A stretch of DNA of 64,000 nucleotides from Schmidtea polychroa (Eukaryota), in NCBI GenBank assembly GCA_044892525.1, contig CM097885.1:11348001-11412000 (forward strand), read 5' to 3'. The translations under genes were made by a program, and so were the position numbers. Positions 1,947-63,262 of the stretch are shown piece by piece (within the stretch, counting starts at the first letter, position 1; every line of letters begins with the position of its first letter). The notes under the pieces are model-generated. The model was given only the letters and a program-made list of their open reading frames with translations, was not told where the DNA came from and did no database searches.

Positions 1947-2020
1947 ATAAACAATACTATGTCAAATGGCATGGTTATCAAAACCCGTCATGGATATCAG
2001 CAAAAGACCTAGTAAAGTGA
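1947..2020 (+). pseudogene. C-terminal chromodomain remnant of the Polinton integrase
   Basis: KQYYVKWHGYQNPSWISAKDLVK* fits the chromodomain pattern Y-VKW-GY...SW. It sits immediately upstream of the penton gene, the usual Polinton position. Confidence 0.75.
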
Positions 2021-3033
2021 ATTTTTATACTATTTTACCGAGCAATAGTTGCCCATTAATTCATCCAGACAATCAAGCCAGTAAATTTATGGTCAATCTC
2101 CAGAATCCGATTTCTTTAAATGGTGACTGGGAAGTTGCACTGCAAGATTTTACATTCGTGTACAACACATTCCCATTTTATAGTCAATGTAAGATTGATT
2201 TCAAAAGGAATATTGTGAAAACATGTAGCGGTATCTTTGTTATTAGTAATTATGATAAAACATATCATATTCCGAATCAAATATTAGATTCGCATTGCTA
2301 TATGTTTTACAAGGATGGATTAAATATCAGTTGTGATTTTAAACCATTTACAATAACATTCGAAACTATTGAAGATGCCAAACGAATGGGTTGCAAAAAG
2401 TTGAAAAATATTGTTACGGAGACCGAGTATTTATTACGTTTTAATCTATTTGAAGCAAACAGTGTAATGAAAGAAGAAATCAAAATATCTGTGTCGTATA
2501 ATGATGAAGTTGAAGAATCTTTTACCTTTGCTGATGAATTATATTTTGATAAACTTGATGATTTACTTAAATATTTAAAGTTCAATTGTTCACACATATT
2601 TAAAAATTTGGAAATTGTGAAAGATTTGATGTTTACCGTCAGTTTGAATGAGGATATTTGCGAAGTTACATTTGATAAAAATTTGGCAAATTCACTTGGA
2701 TTAGATAAGCAAAAATATCGAGAAAAATCGACTGGTATACGCAAACCAAGAATACTAGAACATCATCAACAAATGTTCATATATACTAACATTATCGAAC
2801 CCATAATTGTTGGTGATTCCAGTGTTCCTCTTTTGAAATCGGTATGGATTGGAAAATATGAACATGATGAAGTTGTCAATATAAATATCGATAATCCCAT
2901 GTATTTACCAATAGCAAGTTCATGTATAAACAATATAGAAATAAATATTCGTGATGATAGTGGAAAACTTATAAACTTTCCAAAAGGTTCAAAAACTCAT
3001 TTGACATTACATTTTCGTAAAATAAATGGCTAG
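1966..3033 (+). CDS. Polinton minor capsid protein (penton)
   Basis: N-terminal FYTILPSNS...NQASKFMVNLQNPISLNGDWEVAL and C-terminal FIYTNIIEPIIVGDSSVPLL...NIEINIRDDSGKLINF...LTLHFRK. The real start may be near 2017. Confidence 0.88.
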   Translation: MAWLSKPVMDISKRPSKVNFYTILPSNSCPLIHPDNQASKFMVNLQNPISLNGDWEVALQDFTFVYNTFPFYSQCKIDFKRNIVKTCSGIFVISNYDKTYHIPNQILDSHCYMFYKDGLNISCDFKPFTITFETIEDAKRMGCKKLKNIVTETEYLLRFNLFEANSVMKEEIKISVSYNDEVEESFTFADELYFDKLDDLLKYLKFNCSHIFKNLEIVKDLMFTVSLNEDICEVTFDKNLANSLGLDKQKYREKSTGIRKPRILEHHQQMFIYTNIIEPIIVGDSSVPLLKSVWIGKYEHDEVVNINIDNPMYLPIASSCINNIEINIRDDSGKLINFPKGSKTHLTLHFRKING

Positions 3034-3388
3034 TTCTGATATTATTAGTATGTATAGTGGTAGCCAATCTGGTGGCGAATTACCATATTTTATTGGTAAA
3101 CAGTACGGATCGGGATGGTTGAGAACAATTGGTAGATTTGCATTGCCTATTCTTAAACGTATTGGTAGTTTTGGTATGAAAACTGCAAAAGACGTTATTA
3201 TGAATGAACAGAAAATATTACCATCTCTAAAAACCAATGCTTTAGCTGAATTAGGGAAAGTTTTACCAGGGGTTCCAGGTATGTTTCAAAAAGAAAAATC
3301 TCCAGCTCCAGCTCCAAAACGTAAAAGACATGGAATATCACGTATAAACAAACGAATGAAAGGACATGGAACTATATTTGCAAAATGA
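3026..3388 (+). CDS. Polinton core protein (PW-like, basic)
   Basis: QSGG and QYGSG adenain-type sites, amphipathic WLRTIGRFALPILKRIG, basic C-terminus; located between penton and MCP. Confidence 0.8.
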   Translation: MASSDIISMYSGSQSGGELPYFIGKQYGSGWLRTIGRFALPILKRIGSFGMKTAKDVIMNEQKILPSLKTNALAELGKVLPGVPGMFQKEKSPAPAPKRKRHGISRINKRMKGHGTIFAK

Positions 3389-4608
3389 TTTGTGGTAAAT
3401 CTGAATTATGTATATTTGATAGACCGTCGCCCCAGGCTGTAATAGAATTTGGGGCATTTGAGGAAGTTTTTCCTATGAATTCAATTACCGATAGTAGAAA
3501 TGATATAGAGTTTTATATTAATGGTTCGCAAACTGAATATTTAGATTTGAACGATACTTTATTGACTGTTCAGATCAAGGTTGTAGATAAAGATAGAAAA
3601 GTTTTGGATGCCAATGCAGATGTAATACCGAACAATTTCATGTTTCATACTCTGTTTAAAGATGCAGTGGTGGGATTTAATAATATCAAGATTGAGGGTG
3701 GAAATAATACATTCATTCACAAGGCATTAATAGAAACTATTTTAAATTACAATTCCGATACTAAAAATACATGCCTTACTCCTATGGGTTATGCAGCAGC
3801 AGATGATGAAAGAAAAAAGTGGGTTAAAGGCTCAAAATCATTCACTATGTGCTCATCATTACAACTCGATTTTATGGATCAACCGAAATATTTGCTACCG
3901 GGAGTTAATGTACATATTAGATTGAAAAGGTCTGATTCTGCATTATCTCTTACTAGTGCAACTGGTGCACCAATATGTCAATTAGTTGATGCAAAATTAT
4001 TGGTGAGAAGAGTACGACTAGACCCCTCAGTATTAGCAGGTCATCAATTGGGTCTTAATTCAAAACATGCAATTTATCCATTAAAAACAAAGGAAATTGT
4101 ACAATTTGCTATTGCTAAAGGTGCTTCATTTTTCTATAAAGAACAAATATTTGGTGACCGAAGAATGCCTAATTTTATTCTGATAACATTTCAAAGTGAA
4201 GCACAATATAATGGATCATATACTGCGTCCAGCTCAATTTTCAAAAACTTTGGTGTTACATCATTGACTTTGTCGAAAAATACTGATTATAGAGAAACAT
4301 ATATTCAAGATTTCGAGAATGACAATTACTCTGCGACATATATGCAGAGTATTGTTAGAAATCTGGGTTATTTAGATAAAAATTTGAATTGCGGAATAAC
4401 TCTAGAAGATTTTAAAAGGAAATACCCATTTTTTACATTTGTTTTAGCCCCTGATTTTGATTTAAATCAAAGTCAATTACCTCAAAATGGAAATTTACGA
4501 CTGGATATAAAGTTTGCAAAAGCTATTACTGAACCAGTACATGTTATAATATATGGAGTATTTGAAAATGAAGTTCAAATTACTGCAAATAGAACAGTGT
4601 TGGTATAA
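3385..4608 (+). CDS. Polinton double jelly-roll major capsid protein
   Basis: Intact 407 aa ORF with the CGKSELCIFDRP start, YLDLNDTLL, QPKYLLPGVNVHIRLKRS and GNLRLDIKFAKA motifs. Confidence 0.9.
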   Translation: MICGKSELCIFDRPSPQAVIEFGAFEEVFPMNSITDSRNDIEFYINGSQTEYLDLNDTLLTVQIKVVDKDRKVLDANADVIPNNFMFHTLFKDAVVGFNNIKIEGGNNTFIHKALIETILNYNSDTKNTCLTPMGYAAADDERKKWVKGSKSFTMCSSLQLDFMDQPKYLLPGVNVHIRLKRSDSALSLTSATGAPICQLVDAKLLVRRVRLDPSVLAGHQLGLNSKHAIYPLKTKEIVQFAIAKGASFFYKEQIFGDRRMPNFILITFQSEAQYNGSYTASSSIFKNFGVTSLTLSKNTDYRETYIQDFENDNYSATYMQSIVRNLGYLDKNLNCGITLEDFKRKYPFFTFVLAPDFDLNQSQLPQNGNLRLDIKFAKAITEPVHVIIYGVFENEVQITANRTVLV

Positions 4609-5017
4609 ATGTATACAGAAACACCAAAAAGTTGTCATGGAGTAAGTTGTTTTTTATACTCTGGATTTATTTAAGTAGTTCTGTTCAGGTCAATAAAATC
4701 GGAAAACAGATATTGGGAAATGAATTTGTTGGAGTTTTTCCTCTTGATAAAATTCCATATTTGAGCAATAATCAAGCAATAATCGTCAATACTCAATCGT
4801 CTCATCTTGGTGGAGAACATTGGATAGCTATATATATGAAACCTGGTAATATATTCGTGTTCGATCCTATGGGTTTTTATTACCCGGCTTTGTTGATATC
4901 AAAACTACAATGGGAAAACCTATTGTGTATAATAAAACTATGTTTCAAAATCCTTTGACTCAAACATGTGGTCAACATTATTTAGCTTGGTTATTGTACA
5001 AAAAATTTGATGTTTAA
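4609..5017 (+). pseudogene. Adenain-like cysteine (maturation) protease; probable intron 4642-4688; frameshift near 4908
   Basis: FVGVFPLD, GEHWIAIY (catalytic His), VFDPMG, and in the shifted frame QNPLTQTCGQH (catalytic Cys). The ATG at 4609 abuts the MCP stop and joins in frame through a GTAAGT...TTCAG intron. Confidence 0.85.
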
Positions 5018-5045
5018 TAAATGTATCCTTTCCTTTGTTGTTGTG

Positions 5046-5126
<81 letters not shown>

Positions 5127-5501
5127 ATTATTTTGAAAAATATTATTATTTTGAAAAATATTATTATTTTTAATTAATTTTATTATTATTTACATAAATA
5201 TTATTAATTCTACATAAAGACCACCTTTGCCTGAAGCATGCACAGTGCAAGTTAACAAAGGCAGGACTAACAAAGACAGTCACATGTAATTTCTGAGTGA
5301 TTTACATTACATACATGCATGCGTGTGATTGGTTGAGTGAGTAAAATATTCAGTGTCTATGTGTGTGTGCCTAAACTCTCATTGGCTGGGACAGGAAAAT
5401 ATTCATTCTCTTTATAAACATTGACAAATCTCAAATTTGTCACAATTATTTTAAAATTTTTCAACAACAAACCATTTAAAATTTTTCAACAACAAACCAA
5501 A

Positions 5502-5996
5502 ATGTCAAACAACAATATTTTTCGAGGACTTTTGTCAACTGGTAAATTATTATTTTTATTATTATTCTATTTTTATTTATTTTTTATTTAGATTCTTTTG
5601 ACTGGTTAGAAGTAACCGAGGATGAGACGTTATTGAATGTGGATCGAATTTTTGGTAAATTTATTATTCTAATTTTTATGAAATTAATTTTGTTTTTTAG
5701 AACCGATTACAATTAGTGACGACGATGATGTCGTGTTTATTGGGCAAACTGATGCCCCTAATGTAAGAGAAAATGATGCTGAAAGTAAATTTATTTTATT
5801 TTTTGTATATTATTTTTAAAAAATCATTTAGAGTTTAATGTAGACTTGGATAATGGTGGAAATGCCCTCAGTTTAGAGGAGGTAGCAGAAATTGCCCTCA
5901 ATTTGGAGGTGGTAGCAGAAAATACCCTCAATTCGGAGGTGGTAGCAGAAAATGATAATGGCCTCTCTGAGGATGATTCCGATGAGGAACCTCAAT
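5502..5996 (+). CDS. Four small exons of a spliced acidic Polinton protein, possibly the 5' end of pPolB
   Basis: Exons 5502-5541, 5592-5654, 5701-5784 and 5832-5996 are separated by 50, 46 and 47 nt GT-AG introns, all phase 1, with an open frame throughout. TATAAA at about 5413 and ATTGG (CCAAT) boxes lie upstream. Confidence 0.7.
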
Positions 5997-6351
5997 GTAA
6001 GAATTGATTTATTATTTATATGTATATATATATATTTTTTTAAAAATTAAACAATTTTCGTAATCACTTTTTAAACATTTGCATACAAATTTTTGTAATG
6101 TTATTAAATGTTAATTAATTATGATGATAAGAAGAATATGATGAAAAATGATGATATGAAGAAAAATGAAGATATGAGGAATAAGATGATATGAAGAAAA
6201 TGATGAAAATGACGAAAATTATGAAATTATTATTAAGAAAATACTACGTTTCTGAAAAATAATGAAATTATTATACAATGTTAAAAAGTGATTACGAAAC
6301 TATAGTTATAAATATTCCTTGTAGTTTGCAATGTGCATCTACAATAGTTAA

Positions 6352-6433
<82 letters not shown>

Positions 6434-6466
6434 CAGCTACATATATCTCTAATAGTAATAATAATG

Positions 6467-6527
<61 letters not shown>

Positions 6528-6589
6528 TATTAATAATATTTTACATCATTTAATGTAGTCTGCAGTGCGCATGCAGCTACATATATCTC

Positions 6590-6630
<41 letters not shown>

Positions 6631-6764
6631 TTTGTTAATGATGAGATTCGTGTGGATCCTGATGACAGAACTTTTGAAAGAATTTTGTTAGAAATTTTAT
6701 ATTTTTATTGTGTAATAGTGTTGCAGTGGGCACGCAACATTATTTATCTGTTGATAGGATTTTT

Positions 6765-6852
<88 letters not shown>

Positions 6853-6944
6853 TTTTACATCATTTAATGTAGTCTGCAGTGAGCATGCAGCTACATATAT
6901 CTCTAATAATAATAATAATGATGATGATGATAATAATAATAATA
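6352..6944. repeat. (AAT)n microsatellite tracts with a repeated spacer
   Basis: Direct observation; atgcagctacatatatctct recurs three times. Confidence 0.95.
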
Positions 6945-7109
6945 ACCTTTTATTCTACATTATCTTATAATAATATACCAAATTTATTAATTGTTAATAA
7001 TTAATCCGTTTTATAATTATTATATAATAAAAACGGATTAACTACTAACAATTGGTAATAAATATTTAGAAAAATATTCAAATAATATTTAAGGATTTAT
7101 CATTATTAG

Positions 7110-8706
7110 GTAAATTATATCCACGATACTGCCAGGCTTCTGGACATTCAAAATCTTGTCATAAGACAATGAAAAAATATTATGGCCATAAATTCTATGG
7201 ACTCATATACTATTTATGTCCATCATGCCAGACTTCCCAACATATAAAATATACTGATTTTTAGAAAACCCATAGTAACCATCTTAATCAGTTTTTTATA
7301 AAGAAACTTACTCTCTTTAAACGGATAAATAAAAATGCAAATAAAAATGTAAATAATGATGCGATTAGCGCAGAACATAAAAATTTAAATAAAACTGTAA
7401 ATAAAAATGTAAATAAAACTGTAAATAAAACTGTAAATAATGATGCGATTAGCGCAGAACATAAAAATGTAAATAAAACTGTAAATAAAACTTTAAATAA
7501 TGATGCGATTAGCGCAGAACATAAAACTGTAAATAAAACTGTAAATAATGATGCGATTAGCGCAGAACATAAAACTGTAAATAAAACTGTAAATAATGAT
7601 GCGATTAGCGCAGAACATATAATTAAAACTGTAAATAATGATGCGATTAGCGCAGAACATATAATTAAAAATGTAAATAATAATCTAAATAAAAATGTAA
7701 ATAAAAATGTCAATAATAAACGGCCTGCTGTTATTCAAGACTCTTGTATACCATCTAAAGTTATTAAAGTTAATGGTGGTAATGAAATAAATATCCAAAT
7801 TAATAAGCAAATAGGTGGGTCAATACATGGTTCAGTCGATATAGATGACGAACCAGAAATAGAAATAGATTTTAAGGGGGCTAGAAAAAATCTAAGGTTT
7901 GACGTTGAGAAAAACGACTTAGTTCAAATATCGTTAACATCGAAAATTATAGAAAAGTTAATAGCCGAAATAAAAGGAATGGGGCCGGTTAAAATACAGT
8001 TCACTGTTCTCATACAATTTGAGAAAGATGGCGAAATCCGAGATAATTTTTTCTCCAATAACGCCGAAGTTTTTTCCGATAATTTTCTATTAGAGGGCAT
8101 CACTAAGTTAAATAATAAAATTGAAAAATTCACCTATTTAGGAAGCGGATGGCGGGTTGTTAGGATAAAAGAAATAGATTTTATAATAAATAAATATAAA
8201 TGTATAAATAGATTAGCTGGACATAGTTACATCCCCACCCCAGCGGCTTTAAATTCTAAAAAAGCAATTGTAAATATACAGAACACAGATGATATGTGTT
8301 TCATCTATAGTATTCTAGCCCTCTTAAAGCGTGATATTATACACCGCAATAGGCACCGTGTTACTGCTTATGAGAGTTATTTAAACGAGATCAATTTCGA
8401 CCCTATTAGTGATTGCCCGATGAAATTATGTGACATACCCAAATTTGAACGCAAAAACAGTGAACTGAACTTGGCTATTAACGTTTTAACTTATAGGAAT
8501 AAACCAGCTAAGCCTATTGAACATCAAGATATAGATTATATTCCCCATCACCCACATCTAGATATTATTCACCGCTCTAAGGTTATAGGTGGTGAACCCA
8601 TATATTTATTATTATTAGAAGACGGTAGTAATTTTCATTACACCGCAGTTTTTGATCTGCAAAAACTTATGAATTGTCATCCTAATAATTCCTGTGATAT
8701 ACAAAT
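7110..8706 (+). pseudogene. N-terminal region of Polinton protein-primed DNA polymerase B, truncated
   Basis: Frame open from 7265 through N/K-rich repeats, QIGG, GSGWRVVRI, SYIPTP..L.SKKAIVNIQNTDDMCFIYSILA, PMKLCDIPKFE and LLLLED..HY. A Cys/His-rich exon from 7110 is offset by a frameshift at about 7260. No polymerase core follows. Confidence 0.8.
7326..7712 (+). repeat. Coding tandem repeat (NKTV / NNDAISAEH units)
   Basis: Repeated aataatgatgcgattagcgcagaacat and aataaaactgta units, in frame with pPolB. Confidence 0.9.
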
Positions 8707-8972
8707 TTGGAAAAGTACTACCGACGTGATTGAAAGTCGGAGGAAAGTTATTGAAAGTCAGTGGAAAAAATTTTATAGAAAAAATAGTACCGACGTGATC
8801 GCAAGTCGGCGGAGAATTATTGAAAGCTCGTGAAAAAGAAATTATTAAAAAAAAAATTAGTACCGACGTGAGAGAGAGTCGGCTGAGAATCATTGAAAGT
8901 ATTGAAAATTTGTGAAAATAGTGCTAACGAGATTATTAAAGGCTATTATTGGGAGATTTAAAAGAACTCAAA

Positions 8973-11567
8973 GTGAACCGATACAACCTCAGAAGTCAGA
9001 AACAAGTCCAAATGGCAAATGATAATGCTGTTATGCCTCTCAATAGAGAGATGATTGATTTCGCAAGTTGCCAGAAATTACCCGTCAATCAATATGGAGG
9101 AGACCCTGTCGAATTTGCAGATTTCATGGGAGATTATTATATGTACGCCTCAGCATACGGATGGACACAAGCCATTATGGTTCAGAGATTCCCACTCTAT
9201 CTGAAGGGTGCGGCAAGAGAAGCCTGGCAGCAAGTCGACAAACGAAATGTTGGTAATGATTGGACCAAATTGAAGGATGCAATGGCACTGAAACTGGTTG
9301 GTGGAGATATCAAAAGAATCATGCGACAGAAATTTTATAATCGAGTTCAAGGTCCAGATGAATCGGTCAGTGAGTTTGCTTATCATCTAACCACTTTAGC
9401 AGATAAAGCCTTTGAAGTTAAACCAGACCAAGCAGATATGGCCAAGCAGGTTAAAGAGCTATTAGAAGATCAGTTTATAACCGGAGTCCACTCCGAAATT
9501 AAAAAAGCCCTATGTTATGTGGATTTTTCCAATTTCGATGAGCTCGTGAAGAAAGCCATGAAGATAGAGCTGAATTTGAAAAGTGCAAAAAGATCAGATG
9601 CTTTTGGAGTTAATGTGGAGAGACGTGAGCGGTCAATTACGCCTGTGAGAGCACCATGGGATGAAAAGAAAATAAATCAAATCAGTAGTCCAATTTTGAG
9701 ACCCAATAATAGATTCCAAGCCAGTAGATCAGCCATGAATGTACAATCAAATGGACAGGTAAATAATCCTCAATGCGAACATTGCAAAAAGTCTGGACAC
9801 TATTCAAATCAATGTTGGTTCAAATATGGGAAAAATCCCAGCCCTAACAAGAGATTCACAGAAAACAAACGGATCAGCTGTGATGTCGAATGCTATTGAT
9901 GCGGAAAGAAAGGGCATATTAGCAGAAACTGTTTTACCAGATCAAGATCATCGTCAACGTCACCTTCACCACAAAGGGACAAAGTGAATACAAATGGACA
10001 GATACAATGTCATTCGTGCAAGGGATACGGCCACATGGCGCGATCATGCCCAAGGAACTCAGAAAGATTCAGCAGACCTATTTTAAAGAAATCGATCAGA
10101 TTCCAAGAAGATATGCCAAACACCAGTAACATGACATATGCTCAGAGAGAGGAATTTCAAGACAAAATGGAAAAGGAATTTCGAGAAATGCGACAGAAGC
10201 TGAACAAATTAGTGGTGAAATTTGAATCAGATGAGGAAACTGAATCTCATATGATAATTGGAACCGTGTCAGAAGGTGAGGGAAAACCTGCCACGAAAGT
10301 GCGAAAGATCGCATCAGATGAGAATCCAACTGCACTGTTAGCCCGAGTTGAAAAATGGCTTGAGAAAATGGAAACTGACAACTCCCAGTTGAAACGATGG
10401 ATCGCAGAACTCAGCGTGATGACACTAACCCAAAGCGAACTAAAGAGAGCCATAAATTTCTGTGCAAAGTTATTCAAAGGAAACAGAGACGATGAGATAC
10501 TTAAACAAATGCAAAAGTTTGGCAAGGCTTTACGGTCAACAAGGGATTTAGCTGATATCATAGTGGAAACGACGGGACTTGATAATGTGAAGTGCCAATT
10601 CCGTGTAAATGCCTACGGACAAATCAGAGAGCTAAAGAAGCGAATACTGCGTCAATACAGTGGATGGCAAGTGCAACTAAAATTTGAGAATCGATGTCTG
10701 GAAGACGAGGAGTACTTGGTAGATTGCGGTCTGATACCAGGCTGGAAAAATAAAGTAAATGTTGTTAATGCTGTTAATACTTTGAATTCAGACAGACAAA
10801 ATTGGGAAAAGATTCTAGCAGATTTACAAGATACCCTGTATGCAGGGAATAGAGATAAAATTAATGCGAGTATCGACTTCATAATGAGCATCGAAATGGA
10901 TCGAGAAATGAAAGAAGGGTTGTTTGAATGCATCGTACCGTATACGAATAAACCGACGAGTTATCAGGCAAAGCTAAAAGAGGTAATTCGAAAACTAGGA
11001 CATGATTATGAGGCGGCAGACGATAGTGCGAAGTCTTTGATAATAGCGTTAAATATTGCGGATCAAAGGATTGAATATCATCAGGAACATTGGAGTGTAA
11101 AAGCAAAGAAAATACGACAAAAAGCAGCGGAGATATTAGGTCATGAAGGAATTATCGTGTTGATGTTCAAAGGACGAGAATTGGATGATGACGAATATTT
11201 ATTAAACTACGGATGTAACCCAAATTGTATTAATAATGTGTACGCAACAAAACAAAGTGATGAAATGGAAAGAGATGCAGTAATAGTACCGTTTTGGCCT
11301 CTGTATGAGGAAATGGATAATGATAATGTAGAGATTAAAACTGAAGTTGTAGATGACCCAGGAGAAATTGATCAAGAAATTAATGAATTGCAGAGATTAG
11401 AAACAATGGAAAATGAGGAGATGGGATCGGAAAATGAAGTTACAAGGGATATCGAGGAATTGAGCACCGATAATAGGGTAATACCGAGCATAGATGAGAT
11501 GAAAAGTGAAGAGAACTTCGTTGAAACGAAAAATGACATCGCGATATTTCGGAAAAAAACAGAATGA
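8973..11567 (+). pseudogene. gag: Gag (capsid plus 3 CCHC knuckles) followed by two ubiquitin-like domains; in-frame TGA at 9897
   Basis: Retrotransposon capsid motifs (LYLKGAAREAW, RVQGPDESVSEFAYHL, EDQFITGV). Knuckles CEHCKKSGHYSNQC, CY*CGKKGHISRNC and CHSCKGYGHMARSC. ORFs 8949 and 9984 are in the same frame. Ubl-like QLKFENRCLEDEEYLVDCG and LMFKGRELDDDEYLLNYG. Confidence 0.88.
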
Positions 11568-12102
11568 TGCGGAAATTGAATCTTTGAGTTTAGATGAATC
11601 AAGCAGGACTGAGCGAATATTAAAAAGTTTAGTTACGAAATTGTACTTGTTAGATGAAACTGAAACAGAAGAAGATGATACTTCGGAGGGGGAGAAAAGA
11701 GTTGTAAAAAGATTGGCAACGGAATTAAAGAGGAGATTACCGTCGATAATTAAAAGGAATTATGAAGAAAAGGAATTTTGTGAGGAAGCAGTAATTGAGG
11801 ACCTAACACGAACCGAGTTGGATCGAGATGTAATATTGACAGTGCTAGCCTATATAATATTGGAGATTGGTATTTATGGTTGTCTGGAAAGTGACAATTC
11901 AAAATCATTGATAAAGAAAGCTAGTGAAATGACGAATAAATATTTGACTAAATGGATCGCAAACAATGGCGGATGGGAAAAGTTAATACAAAAGGCTGAG
12001 AGCCCAAAAACAGAGACAGTGAGGAAAAAGGGAAAACTTGCATTTCCATGGTTGATGATTTCTATTATTATGTTATTGGGAATAATAAACACGACGAATT
12101 CA
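11560..12102 (+). CDS. Bcl-2-like domain within the retroelement polyprotein, ending in a hydrophobic anchor/signal peptide
   Basis: BH2-like LTKWIANNGGWEKL (WIANNGGW at 11953-11976), degenerate BH1-like ELDRDVILTVLAY and BH3-position helix VVKRLATELKRR, then RKKGK and a hydrophobic stretch. Confidence 0.65.
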
Positions 12103-13885
12103 TTGGTGGCATACGACTGCTCCCAAACCGAAATGGGAAGAGTATATTCGTTGGTAAACGTAGCAGAGTGTTCGGATGCATATCCAGTAAAATTTAAAGT
12201 GACAAATCCAGTAAAATATTATGTATATCAAGAATCGGGGTTTCGACGAGCAAAGGTGAGGGAGTGTACAGTGAAACGAACTACTTTTGTATTTTATTGT
12301 GGAAAATGGAGCCACTCATCGATGGTGAAAATGCAATCGATACCGAGAACGATAGAAATAATTCCAGAGAATTGTTTGGCAGCCTTTCAAACAGGACAGT
12401 TGAAAATAAATGCAGATATCAAACTACAAGCAAAGCTTAACCACAAAATCCGTGAGACTGTAACCGTGCGAGGGATAATAGAGTCGAATGGTGATTGCCA
12501 AGGAGAGCCATACAAAATAGACGATGCTATAATTGACAAAGCCGTGGTTGTGGAAGAGTACATGTCAGAATTAAGAGAATTTGATGGATCATTTGATGAT
12601 GATACTGGTAAACTACAAACACATCCATTCTGCAACATGAAACAATCTAGCTGTCAGACAGGCGAATCAATCTTGGTGTACGATGTCGATACCAAAAAGT
12701 GCAATTTAGTGCAATTGAAGTCAATGAGTTTTAAAGAAATAACGGGAGAACAGATCAGGGAAAAGCCTGAGAAAATAAGAATGGATCCAGCAACGAGCAC
12801 AACAACAAGAATCACACCTCTACGGATGAAAGATACTCCAACAGTGTTAATGTCAACCTCGGAGGAAGATGGGATGCGCTTCCTGAGAAAAGAAACTAAA
12901 ACAAAGTGTGGACAAAATGTCTATGAGACAAATTATAAAGGTATATATGTATCTCAGAAAATGATTACAGAGGCCCAAACAAACATACATGCCGGAGATA
13001 TCAAGTTGACAAATTACTTTAATAACAAAATAGACTATTTATTTCACTTTGGTCAAAATACTGTTGAAAATGTGTACCGAGAAGTTATTATAAATGATTG
13101 CAATCTCAATAAAGAAATACTCCGAAATCGGATGGCAATGGCTATAACCAATCCTAATTTGGTAACACCAATGTTAATTGCAGAAAATGGAGTGTTCGCC
13201 AGAATTTTCGGTGAAGCACTATATAGCTATAAATGTAAAGCGGTACCAGTGAAACTGACAAAGTATGACCAATGCACCAACGAGTTACCAGTGAATTTAA
13301 ATGGAAAGTTGCGATTTATGGAGCCTGTAACACGAATATTACTGGAAGAGGACGTGAAACCGAAAGTATTACAGTGCAATAGATTGTTGGCACCATTATA
13401 CAGACTAACACCAGAATCTTGGATTGCATTACCAGATCATCGAGAAGTAAAGACACCGGAAAACTTAGAATTGACAGAATTACAATATCTGGTAAATTTT
13501 ACGTCGTTAGAAAAATTGTCGCAAAGTGGAATTTACTCGAGCGAAGACATTGAGGAAGCTCACAGAAACTTGTTATTTCCATCAAAGAAGGAAAGAGTAA
13601 TAATGGAAATGGTAGATACAATTCTCCCAAGCGGAAGTGGGAAGGTAAATTATGAGTATTTGTTAACTCCAGATCATTACAAGAAAGCGACGTATAATAC
13701 AATCTAGGGAAAGTTTATGTTCATTGGACAAGCGTGTGCCGGATTGATTGGAATTTATGTAATATGTGTTGTAATCAAAGTAATAATATCGCAGGTCCTA
13801 TCAACACACAGATTATACGCGATCACAGGTTGGTCGTGGAAACTAGTAATTGGGTGCATACCATTATTGGCTAGATTCTTCATTA
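12103..13885 (+). CDS. env: Envelope glycoprotein, chuvirus-like (probable class III fusogen); TAG at 13705
   Basis: Signal peptide then LVAYDC, a Cys-rich ectodomain, YFNNKIDY, DCNLNKEIL, GEALYSYKC and CTNELPV...FMEPVTRIL, then C-terminal FIGQACAGLIGIYVICVVIKVII TM region. This pattern matches chuvirus-type G proteins as I recall them. Confidence 0.8.
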
Positions 13886-14289
13886 CTCATCATCAATATC
13901 AGGAGTTGGAGATACTCAAGGCTCGAATATTAAAGAAGAAAAAGGTGAGCTACGCTAGTACTACCCCTTCAAGGGACGAGAATAATGACAATGACAACGA
14001 GGGTGATAGTGCACCGTTATATGTTGACAATCAAGAACTAAGTGGAATGAATAAAGAAGCGTTAAGAACTTATCAAATCTTAAAAGAACCACTGTTAAAT
14101 GCGAGTAGCGTAGACACATTTACAAAATTGTGTATACCAAAATCATTTATGCAACCAGCACCAGTGTATCCAGTTGATCGATTACGAGAGATGAAACCAG
14201 TGGAAAATATCGCATTACAATGTGAAGGAAAGGTGGGAGAGAGAATCGAGCCTTCTAGCGCAGAGATCGAGAGAAAAAATATGTTAGGC

Positions 14290-17200
14290 TTACCATGCAA
14301 CTACTCATTGATGACATTAACAAAAAGAGGAAAGCAACCCCGAATATTTACACAAATGAACAAACATAAAGTGGAAGCTTTAGTCGATTCGGGATCTAGT
14401 CACACAATAATATCGGAAAATGTATTAAACGCGAAGGAGAAAATGCGAATAAAGCCTACCGACGAAATAGTGAGGTCATTATCAAAAAATGAATTCAACA
14501 TAATTGGACAACTTAACGTCATATTCTATATTGGAGATCGAATAATAGCGCACGATGCGCTCATAATGAAGGGAAGTCCAGTACGATGTCTGATCGGCAT
14601 GGATATATTAGAGCAGCTGGACGGAGTCTCACTTAATTTAAAGACAGGTAATTTGATAGCAGGAGAAACAGGAGAAATAATTCACAGGGCAGGTGAAGTG
14701 TTTGTGAATCAGACATTGACAATACCACCAGAATCGGAGATGGTATATTGTGCAAATACCATGAGTGTGGATAATGGTGATTTTATATTCGAACCAAATC
14801 AAACGCTAGTCGAAAAATATGATTTACCGATATGTGACGAAGTTGTCAAAGTGGAAAATCAGATAGTACCAGTCCATATAACGAATAGCAGTAAGAAACC
14901 GGTTCAGCTACACCCAAAAACAAAATTGGGAAAATTATCAAAAATGTCTATTGAAACAAATTGCAAAATACCAAGAAACGTCAAAGTGTATAAGGAGCCT
15001 GAAGTGGTAAGCAATGATTTAAATGAGAGGCAGAAAAAGGAATTTACAAAACTGTTGAGAAAATACCAAGATATCTTTGCTAAACACGAATATGATTTAG
15101 GTTTAACCAATGTAATTGAGCATGAAATACCGTTATTAGACGAAACTCCAATAAAAATAAAGCCATACAGAATCCCCTACGTTCATCAAGATGAAAGTGA
15201 TAGACAGATTACAGCAATGAAGGAATTTGGAATAATTCGAGATAGCGCGTCACCATTCTCCTCATCAATAGTGATAGTTAAGAAAAAAGATGGAGACTTA
15301 CGATTTTGCGTAGATTATCGGAAGCTAAATCAAGTTACGAGGAAAGACACTTATCCAATTCCGGTACCCCAAGAAATGTTTGATCAAATGGGAGAGGCAC
15401 GATATTTCACAGTTATTGATTTAAACAAAGGGTACAATCAATTTAGAGTAAAAGAGGAAGATAGAGGAAAGACGGCGTTCTCGGATGGCAAAGGACTGTA
15501 TGAGTTCAATGTGTTACCATTTGGATTAACAGGAGCCCCAGCTACATTCCAACGAGGAATGAATTATGTGTTACGAGGAATTCGACATGCATTGGTATAT
15601 ATCGACGATATAATAATATTTTCAAATGATTTTGAAGAACATCTGAAAGATGTAGAAACTGTATTTAAACGGCTCAAAAGTGCAAAATTAAAAATCAAAC
15701 CATCGAAATGTGAATGGGGCAAAGCAGAAGTGATTTATGTCGGACATATAATATCACGGCGAGGGTTACAAACTAATCCAGATAACATCAAAAAAGTGGA
15801 AGAGTACCCAGTACCAAAAGATGCCGATGAGGTTAGACAATTTTTAGGTTTGGCTAGCTATTACCGAAAATTTATAAAAGATTTCTCTCATATCGCACAA
15901 CCATTGAATACGTTACTAAAGAAAAACAATAAATTTATTTAGGGACAAATGCAACAAAACGCTTTCAATACATTAAAAGAGAAATTAGTAACAACTCCTA
16001 TATTAAAATGTCCAGATTTTACAAAACAATTTATCTTGATGACGGATGCAAGCAACGTTGCATTGGGTGCGGTATTGGGACAAAAATTTGAAGGTGAAAA
16101 GGACCATGTAATAGCATACGCAAGCAGATCATTGAGGACTCACGAGAAAAACTACTCAACGATTGAAAAGGAAACGTTAGCGTTAGTGTATGGAATTACT
16201 ACTTTTAGACAATATTTATTGGGCAGAAAATTTACTGTTTATACAGATCATAATCCATTACAGTGGTTAATGAAACACAGAGATTCAGCCAGTAAGTTAA
16301 TACGATGGTCAATTGCCCTCCAAGAATACGACTTTGAGATTAAATACCGGACAGGTAAAGCTAACGCGAATGCAGATGCAATGTCGAGAATCCCAGAAAA
16401 TAATAGTGAAGGGACACCTGAAAAAGTGGAAGGCACTATATTCGCTGCAATCAAAGCTGTTAATGATATGTCTGAACTTCAAAATGATCAGGAAAACGAT
16501 AGTGAATTAAAACAATTTATCGAACAAGCGGTCAAAATAAGAAAAGAACAAGACTGGAAACGACTTACAGATGCAAACAGCAAATATGTAATTCATAATG
16601 GAATACTTAAATGTTGGAAAAATGGGGAAGCATTAATTATTATACCAGCCAAGCACAGAGATGCATTACTGATGCAGTATCATGATGGAGCGTTGGGAGG
16701 TCATTTGTCAACGCGCAAGACGCTATCAAGATTAAAATTGAAATACTTTTGGCCAACAATGGAACAAGACGTGAAAAATTGGTGTAACAGTTGCAAAGTA
16801 TGCATCACCCGCAGAAATACTGGTAAAAAGATTAAAGTACCATTAAAACCGATGCCAGTACCTGCAGCACCAATGGAGATGACGGCAATGGATATTCTAG
16901 GACCATTACCGGAAACAACAAAAGGAAACAAATACATTGTTGTTTTTTGTGACTACTTTACCAAATGGCCAGAAGCATACGCTATTCCAAACAAAAAAGC
17001 AGATACGATTGCTAGAATATTTGTGGAAAACATAATATTTCGCTATGGTACTCCAAAGAAATTGTTAACTGATCAAGGAAAGAACTTTCAAAGCGAGATG
17101 TTTAAATCAATCACAGACTTATTTGGAATTTGGAAATTGAATACGTCACCATATCATCCACAAACTGATGGATTGGTGGAACGATTTATTGGGACACTGA

Positions 17201-17745
17201 TAAATATGATCTCATCATATGTGAATCGAAAACAGAAAAATTGGGACGACTTCATAAAGCCGTGTCTATTTGCCTACAGAAATGCAGTAAATCAAAGTAC
17301 AGGAGAGACCCCTTTTTACTTGATGTATTTAAGGAAAAATAATATGCCGATTGATCTCAAATTCCAACCACCAATTTCACAATATATGGAGATACCCGAT
17401 TATAAAGCATTGATGCAAGAAAGAATGCAGTCAGTATGGACTAAAGCCGGTTTGACAATAAAGCACAACCAAGAGAAATATAAAGAATCATACGATAAAA
17501 AAGCACATGCGCATGGCATAAAGATTGGAGATCTAGTATATCTGAACAGACCGGAACCTCTCAAAGGTTTATCGCCTAAATTGCAAAGACCATTTAAAGG
17601 ACCCTACAAAGTGTGCGACACCACCGAAACCAATTTGAAGTTATTACCATTCAGGAGTAAAAAAGCTAACCCGATGATTGTGTATGCAAATCGATGTAAA
17701 CTAGTGCCAGAGGAAGATGAATCTAGATATCCCTTAAGATCCAAG
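14290..17745 (+). pseudogene. pol: Pol: aspartic protease, RT, RNase H, integrase with GPY/F; TAG at 15940
   Basis: ALVDSGS (DSG at 14386), RFCVDYRKLN, LPFGLTGAPATFQR, YIDD (15598), TDAS, H-H-C-C zinc finger, MDILGP, TDQG, DGLVER and GPYKV. Same frame as env upstream. Confidence 0.97.
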
Positions 17746-17811
17746 CAGAATAAAGTAACGGGTCAAACAAAATTGAAACAGAAATTCACTAAAAATCCAA
17801 CACCAGTCAGC

Positions 17812-18945
17812 TACATCAATAAGATATTATATGTAGCAATAATGCTGATGTTAGTAACAGTCGCGAGCGGCAAAAAGATTGACTTGCCATATGCGGTAAA
17901 CAAAATCCAGGTAATGGAGAAAATACATATATATTCCACCCTAACAAATGTAGTATGGAGCTGTAAATGCGAGATCGCAGACCAAATAGAAATTATTAAT
18001 TTACTAGACAATACGGCACCAGAAGTAGAACTGAATTATGATAAAGATACATTTGCAGTACAAAATTTAAAGCCAAATTTGAAATACCAATGGCTGTTGA
18101 GACAGAACATGTCAAAGTGGTACACGCAAATTCCGATAGAAGTGCACACAAAAGAGATGCGAAACTTGATCGAGATAGAACCAGAGATAAACAGAATCAA
18201 TATATATTGGAAGCCAGTGGACTTGGTGAAAGTGCGAATCACATTTCAAGGGTTAAATGTCAACACCCTTAACTCGCGAAAATCATTTATCCGCTACGAG
18301 AAATTGAAAATGAATCAAAATTATTCAGTTAATGCAAACTACTACGAGAACATATGCCTCAAAAATGGAACGGTAGTGAGAAACCAATGGTCACGATTTA
18401 AGAGTGAGACCCAGTCTATCTATCTCGGAGACGAGTCAAATCGTATAACCCTGAGTGTTGGAAATGGACCGGTAACAATATATAGAAAATCAGGAAATGA
18501 TGAAAGAGTTGTTATTATCTACAAACAAAAAACCCTGACTATATTAGATGCCGGTAATCATTTTTTTACACTTTACACTTCTGATTTAGAGACGGCATGG
18601 GAATTAACAGTTAAATATCAGCGATGGATAACCGAACCAGGCAGATGGCAAACAGTTTTCGTGGAAGTCAAGACAATCAATGAATCGAAACGAAAATCAA
18701 ATACAACTACATCACCTTTCCAATTACCGGCCCAAGAGACGACAAAACCTAACTCAAATAAACTAATGATGATAAATTCGGACTTGACAGTCAACTATTG
18801 TGAATATCTCATTTACATTTTAATAACAGGTTTTCTCATCTTATCAATAACATTCATAATCATCACCATCTCGATATGTGTAAAAGAGAGACAACTAACT
18901 ATCCTTCAACCACCATCATATTCATATTATGAGACAAGACTATAA
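17812..18945 (+). CDS. Second type I membrane protein fused in frame after integrase
   Basis: Internal signal-like KILYVAIMLMLVTVASG, about 300 aa beta-rich ectodomain with N-X-S/T sites, S/T/P stalk, TM YLIYILITGFLILSITFIIITISICV and tail PPSY. Confidence 0.7.
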   Translation, partial: YINKILYVAIMLMLVTVASGKKIDLPYAVNKIQVMEKIHIYSTLTNVVWSCKCEIADQIEIINLLDNTAPEVELNYDKDTFAVQNLKPNLKYQWLLRQNMSKWYTQIPIEVHTKEMRNLIEIEPEINRINIYWKPVDLVKVRITFQGLNVNTLNSRKSFIRYEKLKMNQNYSVNANYYENICLKNGTVVRNQWSRFKSETQSIYLGDESNRITLSVGNGPVTIYRKSGNDERVVIIYKQKTLTILDAGNHFFTLYTSDLETAWELTVKYQRWITEPGRWQTVFVEVKTINESKRKSNTTTSPFQLPAQETTKPNSNKLMMINSDLTVNYCEYLIYILITGFLILSITFIIITISICVKERQLTILQPPSYSYYETRL

Positions 18946-19124
18946 ATTGTGATCTGCATGCTATAAATAGTGTATAAAAATATATTATATTTATATCAAC
19001 AATGTGCATGTTTTATAAGTACCATAGGATGAACTGTGTAATTTGTTTGAGATTCGAAGCGAGGTGTTGATGCTTTGCGAATAAAGAGTGATACAAAAAA
19101 ATGACTATTATTTAATTTCAGAGA

Positions 19125-19370
19125 ATGCAAGAAGCCTCGGAGATGACATGCAAAGAGTGTAAAACAAGTACGCAAGAACTAAAGCAAAAGTTTCGTAGCA
19201 TGCAGGGCAGAATAACAGATTTGGAGGAAGAAAACTTCCGTCTGAAAAGGCGGTTGGACCGTTTGGAAATCTTATTGTTTCAACACGAAGCCGATTTCGC
19301 GATGTTTCGAATGAGAGTAGAAGAAATGGAGGAATCGGAAGATGATGGTGAGATAAATCAATTAGACTAA
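19125..19370 (+). CDS. Accessory ORF: CxxC plus coiled coil with acidic tail; probably expressed from a spliced RNA
   Basis: CKEC followed by a heptad pattern; acceptor-like ttaatttcag just upstream; AATAAA just after the stop. Confidence 0.55.
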   Translation: MQEASEMTCKECKTSTQELKQKFRSMQGRITDLEEENFRLKRRLDRLEILLFQHEADFAMFRMRVEEMEESEDDGEINQLD

Positions 19371-23513: not shown

Positions 23514-24584
23514 AAGGGGGGAGATATGTTGAGGTCTGTAAATTAAAATTAAAAATTTAAATAAAATTTAGAATAATAATTCAAATGGAAAGTAAGCGAG
23601 GAAAAAAGGCAAATAAAAGCGGGATCGTGCACAGAATCAATAGTAAAGGAAAGTGTGATGGAAACAGTATTAGAAAATGCCAAAAGCAATTACGAAAGGC
23701 GAGAATCCGGAAATCCGAGAAAAATCAATAAAGGGAAAAATCATCGAAATCGAATGGGAAAAACGGGACAGGTATAGATTAGCTAATGGTCAACAAGATG
23801 ATGGTTAGGGATTTATCAGAAAAGGGTTAGGAAGGGTCGAAAAACATTCAAATGTATGAAAACAGAAAACGTTAATTAATTAATTAATTGGCTAATGGAA
23901 AACCCGAGCTAATGGGAAACCCGAGCCAATGGAGAACCCGAGAGATAAAGGAAACCCGAGCTGGGTAAACAAGAAGAAAGGCAAACAAAAGGAAGATTTG
24001 GGCCCATTAGCTTGACACAATGATTAATGGGAAAAGAGTAAGGAGAAGATAGCGCGCGTAGGAAGACCGGTAGGGCCATTAATTATCTGGATTCGTTGGA
24101 CCATTATGGGTGACAGCCGAAGCAAACACATAGGAGAAAATGTCAAACGAAAGATTGGCTCGGCAATAACCATTTGTCATCCTGATTTCGAGGAGTATAT
24201 AAGCAAAGGGAAAATCAGAGAAAATCGGCATTCTGCCTCAGCTAGGGTTCGAAGAATTAGACTGTAGGAAAAGTGGTAAACGAATTAGGGAAGTAGGGAA
24301 AAGAAGAAATAGAATTAAGAATACGGAAAGGCAAAAAGGGATCAAACCAAAGAGAAACCGAGGAAAAAGAGAGTCGAGAGAACGAAAGGATCAAAAGGTG
24401 AATATTGTTTGTTGGCAAAGCATCAACGCCGAGCGGAGAATCGTATAAAACTTTGATTGGTAATTGTAGCGTGATAATAAATTGTGAACCTGTTGTTTCA
24501 ATATACGTTGGGTCGTTCATTGTTTTAATTTAAAGAACACCAGGAGTCAGAGAGAACCGACTTGAAATAATCCAAAACCCAACA
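23514..24584 (+). mobile_element. Polypurine tract (23514-23526) and LTR (23527-24584)
   Basis: AAGGGGGGAGATA followed by TGTTGAGG...AACCCAACA (TG..CA with TGTTG/CAACA inverted ends). Internal TATATAA at about 24196 and AATAAA at about 24476. Confidence 0.88.
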
Positions 24585-25561
24585 ACTTCATTAAAATTTG
24601 ACTTCACATTAGGAAATGCTCTCCGAAAATTTGTTCCTCTATTATCTCTTTGCCAATCTGGACTCAATCTCCTGGGTACTCTTTCAGAATAATTTTTAAA
24701 CCAACACTGATTTGTATAATGGCCAGTTTTCTTACAAATATCACACTGAATAACTTTATCTCTCTCAGTGCCGGGCGAATTTTGGCTTGCTCTGTTCATA
24801 TTATTATTATCGTTTCTCCATTTGGGTGATGGGCTCTTTGATCGTTGAAATCTATTTCCTGATTCCCAATTGTCTTGGGTTGGGGTTACTGATCCCTCTC
24901 TTTGTACTGGAATTATTGCAAATACCTCAGATTTACTTTTAGAGCTCTTTAGATTCAATTCGATTTTCATTGCCTTTTTAACTAGTTCATCGAAATTGTC
25001 ATACTCTACAAAACATAATGCTGTTTTTATTCCTTTATTTACTCCGGACAAAAATTGATCTTGAATCAGTTCCTGCATCTGCTGGGCTAATCCTGGTTGT
25101 TTCGAATCTTCTTCAAAGGATTTGCTGGCAAGAGTCGATAAATGATATGCAAATTCGCTCACTGTTTCATTTGGATTTTGAACTCTATTATAAAATTTCT
25201 GACGCATTAATCTCTTTATATCTCCTCCAATAAGTTTAGCAGCCAAAACATTTTTTAATTTAGCCCAATCATTGCCGATTGTTTTCCTGTCGATTTGTTG
25301 CCAAACCTCTCTAGCAGCTCCTTTAAGATATAAGGGTAATCTTTGAATCATGATTGCTTGAGACCATCCATAAGCCGTTGCATACATATAGTAATCGCTC
25401 ATAAAATCAACAAATATAATTGGATCTCCTCCATATTGCTCTACTGGCAATCTTTGAGAACTGGCAAAATCATTATTTTCTTTAATAACTGAAACTGGTA
25501 AATCTTCACTGCTCATAATGGCTTCCTTTTTACTCTGGCTTCGTAAATAATATCGGTTCAC
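24585..25561 (-). pseudogene. gag: Truncated gag of a second, related Gypsy family
   Basis: Clearly homologous to gag at 8973 (QYGGDP..F.DFM.DYYMYA.AYGW.QAIM.QR.PLYLKGAARE.WQQ). One CCHC knuckle; cut by the LTR ending at 24584. Confidence 0.92.
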
Positions 25562-25702
25562 TTTAATAAATTATTTCGTTTTCAATTTGCACAAAATCTA
25601 AATCTCAATTTATTATTACAATAAATAATTTACCTTATCACAATCACTTTAATAATTTCAATTAAACACACTTTATTTTAACAATCTTTTCACCAACTTT
25701 TG

Positions 25703-62536: not shown

Positions 62537-62635
62537 TATTAAATCATTTATGAAAATTAGTCTTTATATACAAATTGAGCACGAGTTCATTAAATCATCG
62601 AATATAAACAAATACACATTTATAAAATCTTTGAA

Positions 62636-63262
62636 ATGGAATTAAGAAATGATGCAGTATACCAAATCGTTGGTCCGAGTGGTAGTGGAAAAACATTATT
62701 TGTTTGTAAATTACTAAAATCCAATTTATTCAAATCAAAATTCAACAGGATTTATTGGCATAGGGGTGCTGATGAAGAACATGGATTAACTCAATCAAGT
62801 TTCTGTAAATTAAAAAACATGAAAATAGTAAAGGGATTCGATAAAAACTGGTCCAGCCGATTAAAGAAAGGCGATGTCATTATTATCGATGATTTGTATC
62901 AAGAAGCTAATAAAGAAAAAGATTTTAATAATTTATTTACAAAGATCAGCAGACATGTCGGTGTAACAGTTATTTTCATAACACAAAATCTATTTCATCA
63001 AGGTGGGGCACATCGAACACGTAATTTAAATGTACAGTATTTAGTTATTTTCAAGAATCCTAGAGATGCAACAGTGATTGATTTTCTTGCACGTCAAGCA
63101 TACCCTAACAATCGTAATTTTCTTATCAGTGCATTTCAAGATGCTACAAAAATACCTCATGGATATATATTTCTTGATTTCACACAACAATGTCCCGATG
63201 ATTTACGTGTAAAAACAGATATTTTCAACCCAAAAGGTGCCATGGTTTATAAACAAAGTTGA
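62636..63262 (+). CDS. A32/FtsK-like DNA packaging ATPase
   Basis: Walker A GPSGSGKT, Walker B IIIDD, SRH, ITQNLF and YLVIFKNPRD. Confidence 0.95.
   Translation: MELRNDAVYQIVGPSGSGKTLFVCKLLKSNLFKSKFNRIYWHRGADEEHGLTQSSFCKLKNMKIVKGFDKNWSSRLKKGDVIIIDDLYQEANKEKDFNNLFTKISRHVGVTVIFITQNLFHQGGAHRTRNLNVQYLVIFKNPRDATVIDFLARQAYPNNRNFLISAFQDATKIPHGYIFLDFTQQCPDDLRVKTDIFNPKGAMVYKQS

Follow-up and report, generated by a model that had tools for sequence, protein, structure and literature searches.

Where a Bcl-2-like domain lies in frame directly upstream of a viral-type glycoprotein, the question arises to which of the two the hydrophobic segment between them belongs, and what becomes of the Bcl-2-like part when the glycoprotein is made. 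Such a junction is found in the open frame 11503-13707 (+) of a 64,000-nucleotide stretch of the Schmidtea polychroa genome (GenBank assembly GCA_044892525.1, contig CM097885.1, positions 11,348,001 to 11,412,000 of the forward strand; hereafter the window, whose coordinates are used throughout). The frame is part of a Burro-like gypsy element of 15-18 kb and high copy number, which encodes a single-frame polyprotein in the order Gag-Ubl-Bcl2-Env-Pol (Ubl, ubiquitin-like; Env, glycoprotein). A sequence-only reading of the window had proposed that the tail anchor of the Bcl-2-like domain doubles as the signal peptide of Env. Its landmarks (WIANNGGW, RKKGK, a hydrophobic stretch and TNS/LVAYDC, the slash marking the predicted cut) read as claimed, but the direction of borrowing is probably the opposite: the simplest reading is that the segment is Env's own signal peptide and that Bcl-2 is an insertion ahead of it, in which case Bcl-2 would become anchored in the endoplasmic reticulum (ER) by borrowing the signal of Env, not the reverse. 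The features of the junction, where BH denotes a Bcl-2 homology motif, are as follows.

11238..11249 (+), candidate element-protease site VYA/T (cut 11246/11247), inferred from a loose pattern at other domain borders
11596..11985 (+), Bcl-2-fold domain (profile searches, PDB matches, model)
11815-11838 (+), BH1-equivalent ELDRDVIL
11953-11976 (+), BH2 WIANNGGW
12022..12102 (+), putative internal signal peptide of Env (basic n-region, h-region 12043-12087, c-region NTTNS)
12022-12036 (+), RKKGK, the basic n-region
12043-12087 (+), hydrophobic core of 15 residues
12088-12102 (+), NTTNS
12103-12120 (+), LVAYDC
12103..13788 (+), Monjiviricetes-type fusion glycoprotein ectodomain and transmembrane segment (PF24664, E=3.8e-72 and 8.1e-9)

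Profile comparisons identify 11596-11985 as a divergent Bcl-2-fold domain. Of 5000 shuffles of the element's residues, 3 produced a W[ILVM]xxxGGW motif. Taken alone, the domain of the window matches the Pfam Bcl-2 model at E=0.008 (17 bits, below the cut-off of 31.4), and all 55 of its matches in the PDB at E<=10 are Bcl-2-family proteins (best E=0.087), one of them by presumed identity. When the retroelement relatives are considered together, all nine aligned members match Pfam Bcl-2 at E<=1, the best value being 3.1e-7. A profile built only from the retroelement sequences finds Bcl-2/Bcl-xL at E=8e-5, and BH1 and BH2 are in register, in line with the homology that the sequence-only reading had asserted. 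The AlphaFold model from the retroelement-only alignment (9 rows) has pLDDT 52 and pTM 0.49 and does not show the fold independently of Bcl-2 rows; a Foldseek search with it gave no significant fold match, the rows shown being all of the Bcl-2 family at E>=0.16. With ten host or other stand-alone Bcl-2 rows added, pLDDT rises to 76, Hydra Bcl-2-4 is matched with Z 14.3 (rmsd 3.1, 133 aligned residues) and the top 36 structural matches all have the Bcl-2 fold; this alignment is not independent of Bcl-2, and the model indicates compatibility with the fold, not independent proof of it. Atlas matches for the domain score 0.80-0.81 and count as candidates only. In a tree, all nine retroelement rows lie to one side of a branch whose support, 92/88, is short of the starred level; a single capture of Bcl-2 by the elements is possible but not shown.

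The cleavage site between Bcl-2 and Env was set by the (-3,-1) rule together with the conserved xxAYDC start of Env, and is thus rule-based and not predictor-based. By these rules the segment has the anatomy of a signal peptide, as had been claimed: a basic n-region, a hydrophobic h-region and a polar c-region, with a small residue at -1 in nine of nine sequences and at -3 in eight of nine. In all nine, the predicted site is followed by conserved xx(A/I)(Y/F)DC, and the Env model PF24664 matches from its positions 5-6, i.e. the xxAYDC region. The h-region ends a steady 2-7 amino acids before the cut, where Env starts, whereas its distance from BH2 varies from 22 to 54 amino acids across the eight sequences that have BH2. 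The ninth sequence (L090) encodes Gag, signal, Env, protease (PR) and reverse transcriptase (RT) in one frame with no match to Bcl-2 or Ubl, and the signal stands in the same place. The segment is read as belonging to Env because of its fixed distance to Env, its variable distance to BH2 and its presence in this relative without Bcl-2. A C-terminal tail anchor would end its protein, and here the frame runs on into Env. The charge after the helix (0 in six of nine sequences and +1 in three, against +1 or +2 in four of four stand-alone Bcl-2 tails) weakly favours the same assignment, a contrast weakened further by the close relationship of three of the four tails. What stands of the claim that one helix serves both proteins is that cleavage would leave the domain membrane-bound; that the helix was originally the anchor of Bcl-2 is at odds with the spacing and with L090. 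In L090 (440-2260), an extra hydrophobic stretch occurs shortly before the Env signal, and a further region between the zinc knuckle and the signal has no assignment.

The junction is found in seven lineages: four families of the host genome, namely that of the window (A), B (L051/L052/L064), C (L049/L058) and D (L060), and three outside lineages, P0002 (27% identical) and two metagenome contigs (L088 and L089). For family A, 150 of 1428 candidate copies were scored and are 89-100% identical; six of these 150 have open frames of 3334-3336 amino acids that match the window span. Three family A copies of 15.1, 17.7 and 17.8 kb have long terminal repeats (LTRs) of 1.06 kb that are 99.7-100% identical within each copy, an identity that points to recent insertions. 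Family D, which fits a Burro1-like element, has frames of 4,700-4,800 amino acids and a RING+MATH accessory frame, and its Env is 37% identical to that of the window. The Env of L090 is the most distant (30%) and forms a long branch on an unrooted Env tree, so that the tree does not distinguish gain from loss of Bcl-2. Protein database searches for relatives yielded one match among cluster representatives (P0002) and none among longer proteins; further protein searches gave two chimeric Env fragments, and none with alignment A1. Viral-contig scans for Env relatives confirmed none, and no solved structure of an Env relative was found. In contigs of four presumed-RNA runs, one contig spanning 10074-17305, no GT..AG joint over Bcl-2/Env was seen, a result that neither shows transcription nor excludes splicing.

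Selection was estimated from pairwise comparisons of natural copies, and by these estimates the Bcl-2 domain is under purifying selection. The pN/pS of the Bcl-2 core is 0.06 between D subfamilies (93% amino-acid identity, synonymous sites saturated), and omega is 0.13 within C, 0.30 and 0.38 within A, 0.50 within B (12 changes) and 0.37 between A and B. The regions flanking the core and the upstream linkers are constrained about as much; therefore selection shows that the frame is in use and does not single out the Bcl-2 domain. Between A and B, Bcl-2 diverges fastest (36% identity, versus 70% for Env and 87% for RT).

The BH motifs bear on whether a domain of this kind could act as a classical inhibitor of cell death. 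The GGW motif of BH2 is conserved among related elements, as had been anticipated, in the form of a GW core in all seven lineages; WxxxxGGW is exact in the window, and the first Trp is replaced in D, L088 and L089. BH1 is as degenerate as the sequence-only reading had observed. At the NWGR positions the seven lineages have DRDV (window), D(K/E)EV, NRDK, DDEH, NRDK, TFNT and EDTK, so that neither the Trp nor the Gly is kept in any of them (0/7 each); Arg is at the Trp position in A, C and P0002, and the Gly position is acidic in five of the seven. Alignment also shows that the Gly-Asp pair of BH3 is missing from the window sequence. An argument that change of Gly to an acidic residue proves the domain dead was rejected as too strong: of ten other Bcl-2 loci of the host genome, nine keep the BH1 Trp and only two the Gly. 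According to the available part of PMC8814693, Bfk, which has Arg in place of the BH1 Trp, bound no BH3 peptide, and according to that of PMC5348979, the Bcl-xL mutant G138E/R139L/I140N lost Bax binding. Together with the loss of both BH1 residues, these results make classical capture of BH3 peptides doubtful, and sequestration of this type by the domain is judged unlikely. The block of apoptosis by a viral-type Bcl-2 that had been suggested for the element is doubtful, weakened by the missing BH1 Trp and Gly and the missing BH3 pair. A complex prediction of the domain with the BH3-like stretch of a host Bcl-2 locus (L019) scored 0.09 and bears neither way. Poxvirus Bcl-2 folds illustrate that domains without the motifs can nonetheless influence death or immune signalling. 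Whether this domain has any role in cell survival is about evenly balanced.

The host genome also contains, clustered in tandem, seven Bcl-2 frames of the NWGR type (L019-L025), none with a tail anchor in the exon read, and multi-copy stand-alone Bcl-2 frames (L034-L048), one kind of which (L041) adjoins a TBP-like frame.

The following course of events is proposed. An ancestral Burro-like gypsy element would already have had Env within one polyprotein, led by an internal signal peptide, and would have captured a host Bcl-2-family domain that came to lie just upstream of this signal. During translation the signal would enter the ER membrane with its N-terminal side in the cytosol and Env passing into the lumen. 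Everything upstream of an internal signal of this orientation stays attached to the ER membrane after cleavage. Signal peptidase would cut at TNS/L, which is highly probable, and the upstream part would stay membrane-bound through the signal helix that remains. Gag-Ubl-Bcl2 would thus be tethered to the membrane at first; the tethering of Gag that had been suggested earlier follows from the single frame, although it is probably transient. The element protease may then free the acidic linker, Bcl-2 and anchor (about 285 amino acids in family A) from Gag-Ubl at the candidate site VYA/T, the protease pattern being a loose one derived from a few domain borders. The product would be a tail-anchored-like Bcl-2-fold protein, made once per Env and located first at the ER, that most likely weakens a death or stress response of the host by way of a non-canonical surface and not by classical BH3 capture. 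That the membrane anchor lasts is slightly favoured, and so is the whole reading of a captured Bcl-2 domain anchored by Env's signal and acting non-canonically.

Processing of this kind has a precedent in Rift Valley fever virus (RVFV) NSm, which, according to the part of PMC4926171 available, is released from its precursor by a cut at the Gn signal, is mitochondrial by virtue of a C-terminal transmembrane domain and suppresses apoptosis; by analogy it is a precedent for an anti-apoptotic protein anchored in this manner. Like the retroelement domain in this proposal, NSm is a cytosolic accessory protein upstream of a glycoprotein, is severed at the signal of that glycoprotein and stays in the membrane through a C-terminal transmembrane segment. 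The virus is unrelated and no Bcl-2 homology is claimed, and an anti-apoptotic activity that is shown for NSm in the same available text is only predicted here.

Several observations weigh against the proposal. Besides the losses in BH1 with their parallels in Bfk and the Bcl-xL mutant, the dependence of the fold model on Bcl-2 rows and the similar constraint on the linkers, a stop, perhaps a lesion, stands between BH2 and the signal in L089; at the start of the h-region of family D there is a protease-like INS/L; and in A, C and D the layout of a cytosolic domain followed by an internal signal recurs behind the integrase. Because integrase has to come off the membrane, the element or the host can remove such signal remnants.

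The alternative that survives best, although rather improbable, is that the anchor is a processing intermediate, from which the element protease or host signal-peptide peptidase (SPP) later frees a soluble Bcl-2-fold protein. A comparable release follows the signal-peptidase cut in the anchored capsid of flaviviruses and the core of hepatitis C virus, and SPP favours h-regions with Ser, Gly or Cys, which these h-regions contain. The integrase, with the same layout and the same need to be freed, speaks for release, as do INS/L before the first h-region in D and candidate sites, found by eye, that closely precede the second signal in A and D and lie within its beginning in C. On the other hand, between BH2 and the h-region no protease-like pattern occurs in A, B or C, with the reservation that the pattern is loose and comes from few borders. 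Less probable is a domain that has lost its part in cell death, serving as a matrix-like or adaptor assembly module that links Gag-Ubl to the Env membrane. Such a module would account for the loss of the BH1 Trp and Gly in all seven lineages and the absence of the BH3 pair in the window sequence, for the fixed position between Gag-Ubl and Env, and for the retention of Bcl-2 in frame in a derivative without RT, RNase H and integrase; but the Gag-signal-Env-Pol layout is the same in L090, where Bcl-2 is missing, so the domain is not required by design, it diverges faster than Env (as seen between A and B), which fits a host-facing part, and the loss of Gly is less damning when only two of ten host Bcl-2-family loci keep it. 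Least probable is a classical viral Bcl-2 captured with its own tail anchor, which Env borrowed as a signal and whose product blocks Bax/Bak at mitochondria: the 22 amino acids from BH2 to the helix in family A do resemble stand-alone host Bcl-2 frames (14-25) and an anchor derived from a signal can, as NSm shows, get to mitochondria, but the signal is present in L090 without any Bcl-2, the BH2 spacing varies across lineages, the post-helix charge differs (a weak contrast) and the BH1 Trp and Gly are gone.

The remaining features of the element in the window, whose Pfam matches from Gag through integrase fall within 8940-18945, are as follows.

8940..9899 (+), Gag capsid and first zinc knuckle, stop-terminated in the window copy (PF03732, E=1.4e-9)
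9900..11567 (+), zinc knuckles, coiled region and two ubiquitin-like domains, then acidic linker (Pfam zf-CCHC 1.9e-6; ubiquitin 1.9e-5, 2 stretches)
about 10560-10739 and 11046-11228 (+), the ubiquitin-like domains
near 11553-11560 (+), frameshift lesion in an A-run of the window copy
13789..17742 (+), Env tail, protease (DSG 14380), RT (YIDD 15598), RNase H and integrase (Pfam)
17803..18945 (+), second internal signal peptide, candidate FN3-like ectodomain, transmembrane segment and PPSY tail, fused behind integrase (hydropathy)
23527..24584 (+), 3′ LTR of about 1.06 kb (97-98% identity to the LTRs of three other copies)

The copy in the window is broken, a point that the sequence-only reading did not make: it has stops at 9897-9899, 13705-13707 (interrupting the Env part) and 15940-15942 (interrupting the Pol part) besides the frameshift, and it lacks a 5′ LTR, homology to other copies starting near 8721. 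A programmed frameshift upstream of Bcl-2 was rejected, since in 14 of the 19 family copies examined the second ubiquitin-like domain and BH2 share one frame. A Pfam scan for MATH, BIR, ankyrin and RING cargo covered plus-strand frames of at least 45 amino acids, and no match to MATH, BIR or ankyrin was found in the window frames scanned. With no BIR, the Bcl-2 domain is therefore the sole candidate death regulator of the window copy among these frames.

The second internal signal and a probable FN3-like ectodomain behind integrase were observed in families A (17803-18945), C and D (L080 and L059 being further loci of this observation); the FN3-like assignment is only a candidate (Atlas score 0.88). 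A transmembrane segment follows in A, which ends in PPSY, and in D; the C locus ends before that point. This module is absent from the available passages of the Burro review PMC6431247. The derivative without RT, RNase H and integrase, which looks like a non-autonomous subfamily, joins 14866 to 17802 and retains the Env tail, protease and FN3-like protein (L084, L085); the joint is in frame in L085 and was present in two of four loci fetched and in contigs of two of four runs. The motif RY(N/P)LRS is found before the first Met of Gag (about 8976-8995) and again at the end of integrase (17725-17742), with KYGLQS in family C, and presumably resembles the chromatin-binding motif of foamy-virus Gag. 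After the polyprotein, a small coiled-coil frame (19116-19370) has only weak Pfam matches and a possible splice acceptor just upstream. A related gag at 24530-25570 (-), with about 70% DNA identity, ends inside the 3′ LTR, which suggests nesting, with one member of the family inserted into a relative. On its other side, the 5′-truncated element adjoins frames at 1951-8833 that resemble Polinton/Maverick genes, with a capsid-like frame at 3325-4608 and a polymerase-like one at 7265-8833, although without Pfam support. An A32-type ATPase is encoded at 62594-63262 (Pfam).

The cargo itself has been described. According to the available text of PMC6431247, which concerns the giant gypsy-like LTR retrotransposons Burro/GYPSM1 and cites Jurka 2007 and Grohme 2018, the planarian Burro polyprotein contains Gag, zinc knuckles, a Ubi2/SUMO-like domain, BCL-2, Env in frame, PR, RT, RNase H (RH) and integrase (IN), and a BCL2-like motif is present in Burro-2, -3 and -4. 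The Bcl-2 cargo and its position before an in-frame Env are thus already published for Burro elements. The element of the window shares with them the single polyprotein Gag-Ubl-BCL2-Env-PR-RT-RH-IN, and the Burro1-like family D has the same Bcl-2/signal/Env junction. In contrast to the giants, which exceed 30 kb, have a frame of 4,873 amino acids and carry MATH, BIR and ankyrin cargo, the family of the window has 15-18 kb, 1.06-kb LTRs and a 3,334-amino-acid frame, and none of that cargo was matched in the window frames scanned; it may be one of the named families Burro-2, -3 or -4. The term "signal peptide" occurs 0 times in the text available of PMC6431247, and no account of an Env signal used to anchor Bcl-2 was found in the literature searched, although Grohme 2018, Lee 2026 and Terasaki 2013, which were beyond reach, may name the family or the signal. 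The new part is a testable reading of the processing, with the direction of borrowing reversed. An anti-apoptotic effect of Burro1 in planarian stem cells is credited to its RING+BIR (IAP) region (Lee et al. 2026, via the available part of PMC13465017), and the passages available of PMC8532177 mention expression of BURRO1 and BURRO4 with no occurrence of "Bcl".

Among Bcl-2 proteins, Bcl-xL, the Bcl-2 proteins of Hydra and Trichoplax, KsBcl-2 and A179L share with the retroelement domain the helix order, BH2, the fold match of the model that includes Bcl-2 rows, and a downstream hydrophobic helix. The retroelement domain differs from them in having no NWGR and no BH3 Gly-Asp pair and in that an internal signal, complete with a cleavage region, is its proposed anchor. 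Being made as part of a polyprotein, it would, unlike cellular and viral Bcl-2, be inserted first at the ER. Bfk shares the Arg at the BH1 Trp position with families A, C and P0002 (PMC8814693, in part), but Bfk and Bid, both of which have the fold and lack the BH1 Trp, score lower against the model (Z 9.2 and 6.0, versus 14.3), a comparison in which the model leans on its alignment, and the retroelement domain has no BH3 motif of the Bid kind.

With four families of the host genome and three outside lineages, the Bcl-2-like domain is the more widespread cargo; an IAP was not seen in the copy of the window. On the signal-peptide reading, the product is predicted to be at the ER, on the cytosolic face, to end at TNS and to be made in the amount of one per Env. 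Tentatively, and with the chances against it, at least seven lineages may make a membrane-anchored Bcl-2-fold death inhibitor in 1:1 proportion with Env, anchored by the Env signal, acting at the ER and needing neither the BH1 Trp nor the Gly; in the smaller family, where no IAP was seen, it would be the only cell-survival gene and a second route of retroelement protection besides the IAP of Burro1. If the domain protects cells without NWGR, the requirements for a pro-survival Bcl-2 fold would widen; if it is not protective, a host death regulator would have been turned to another use.

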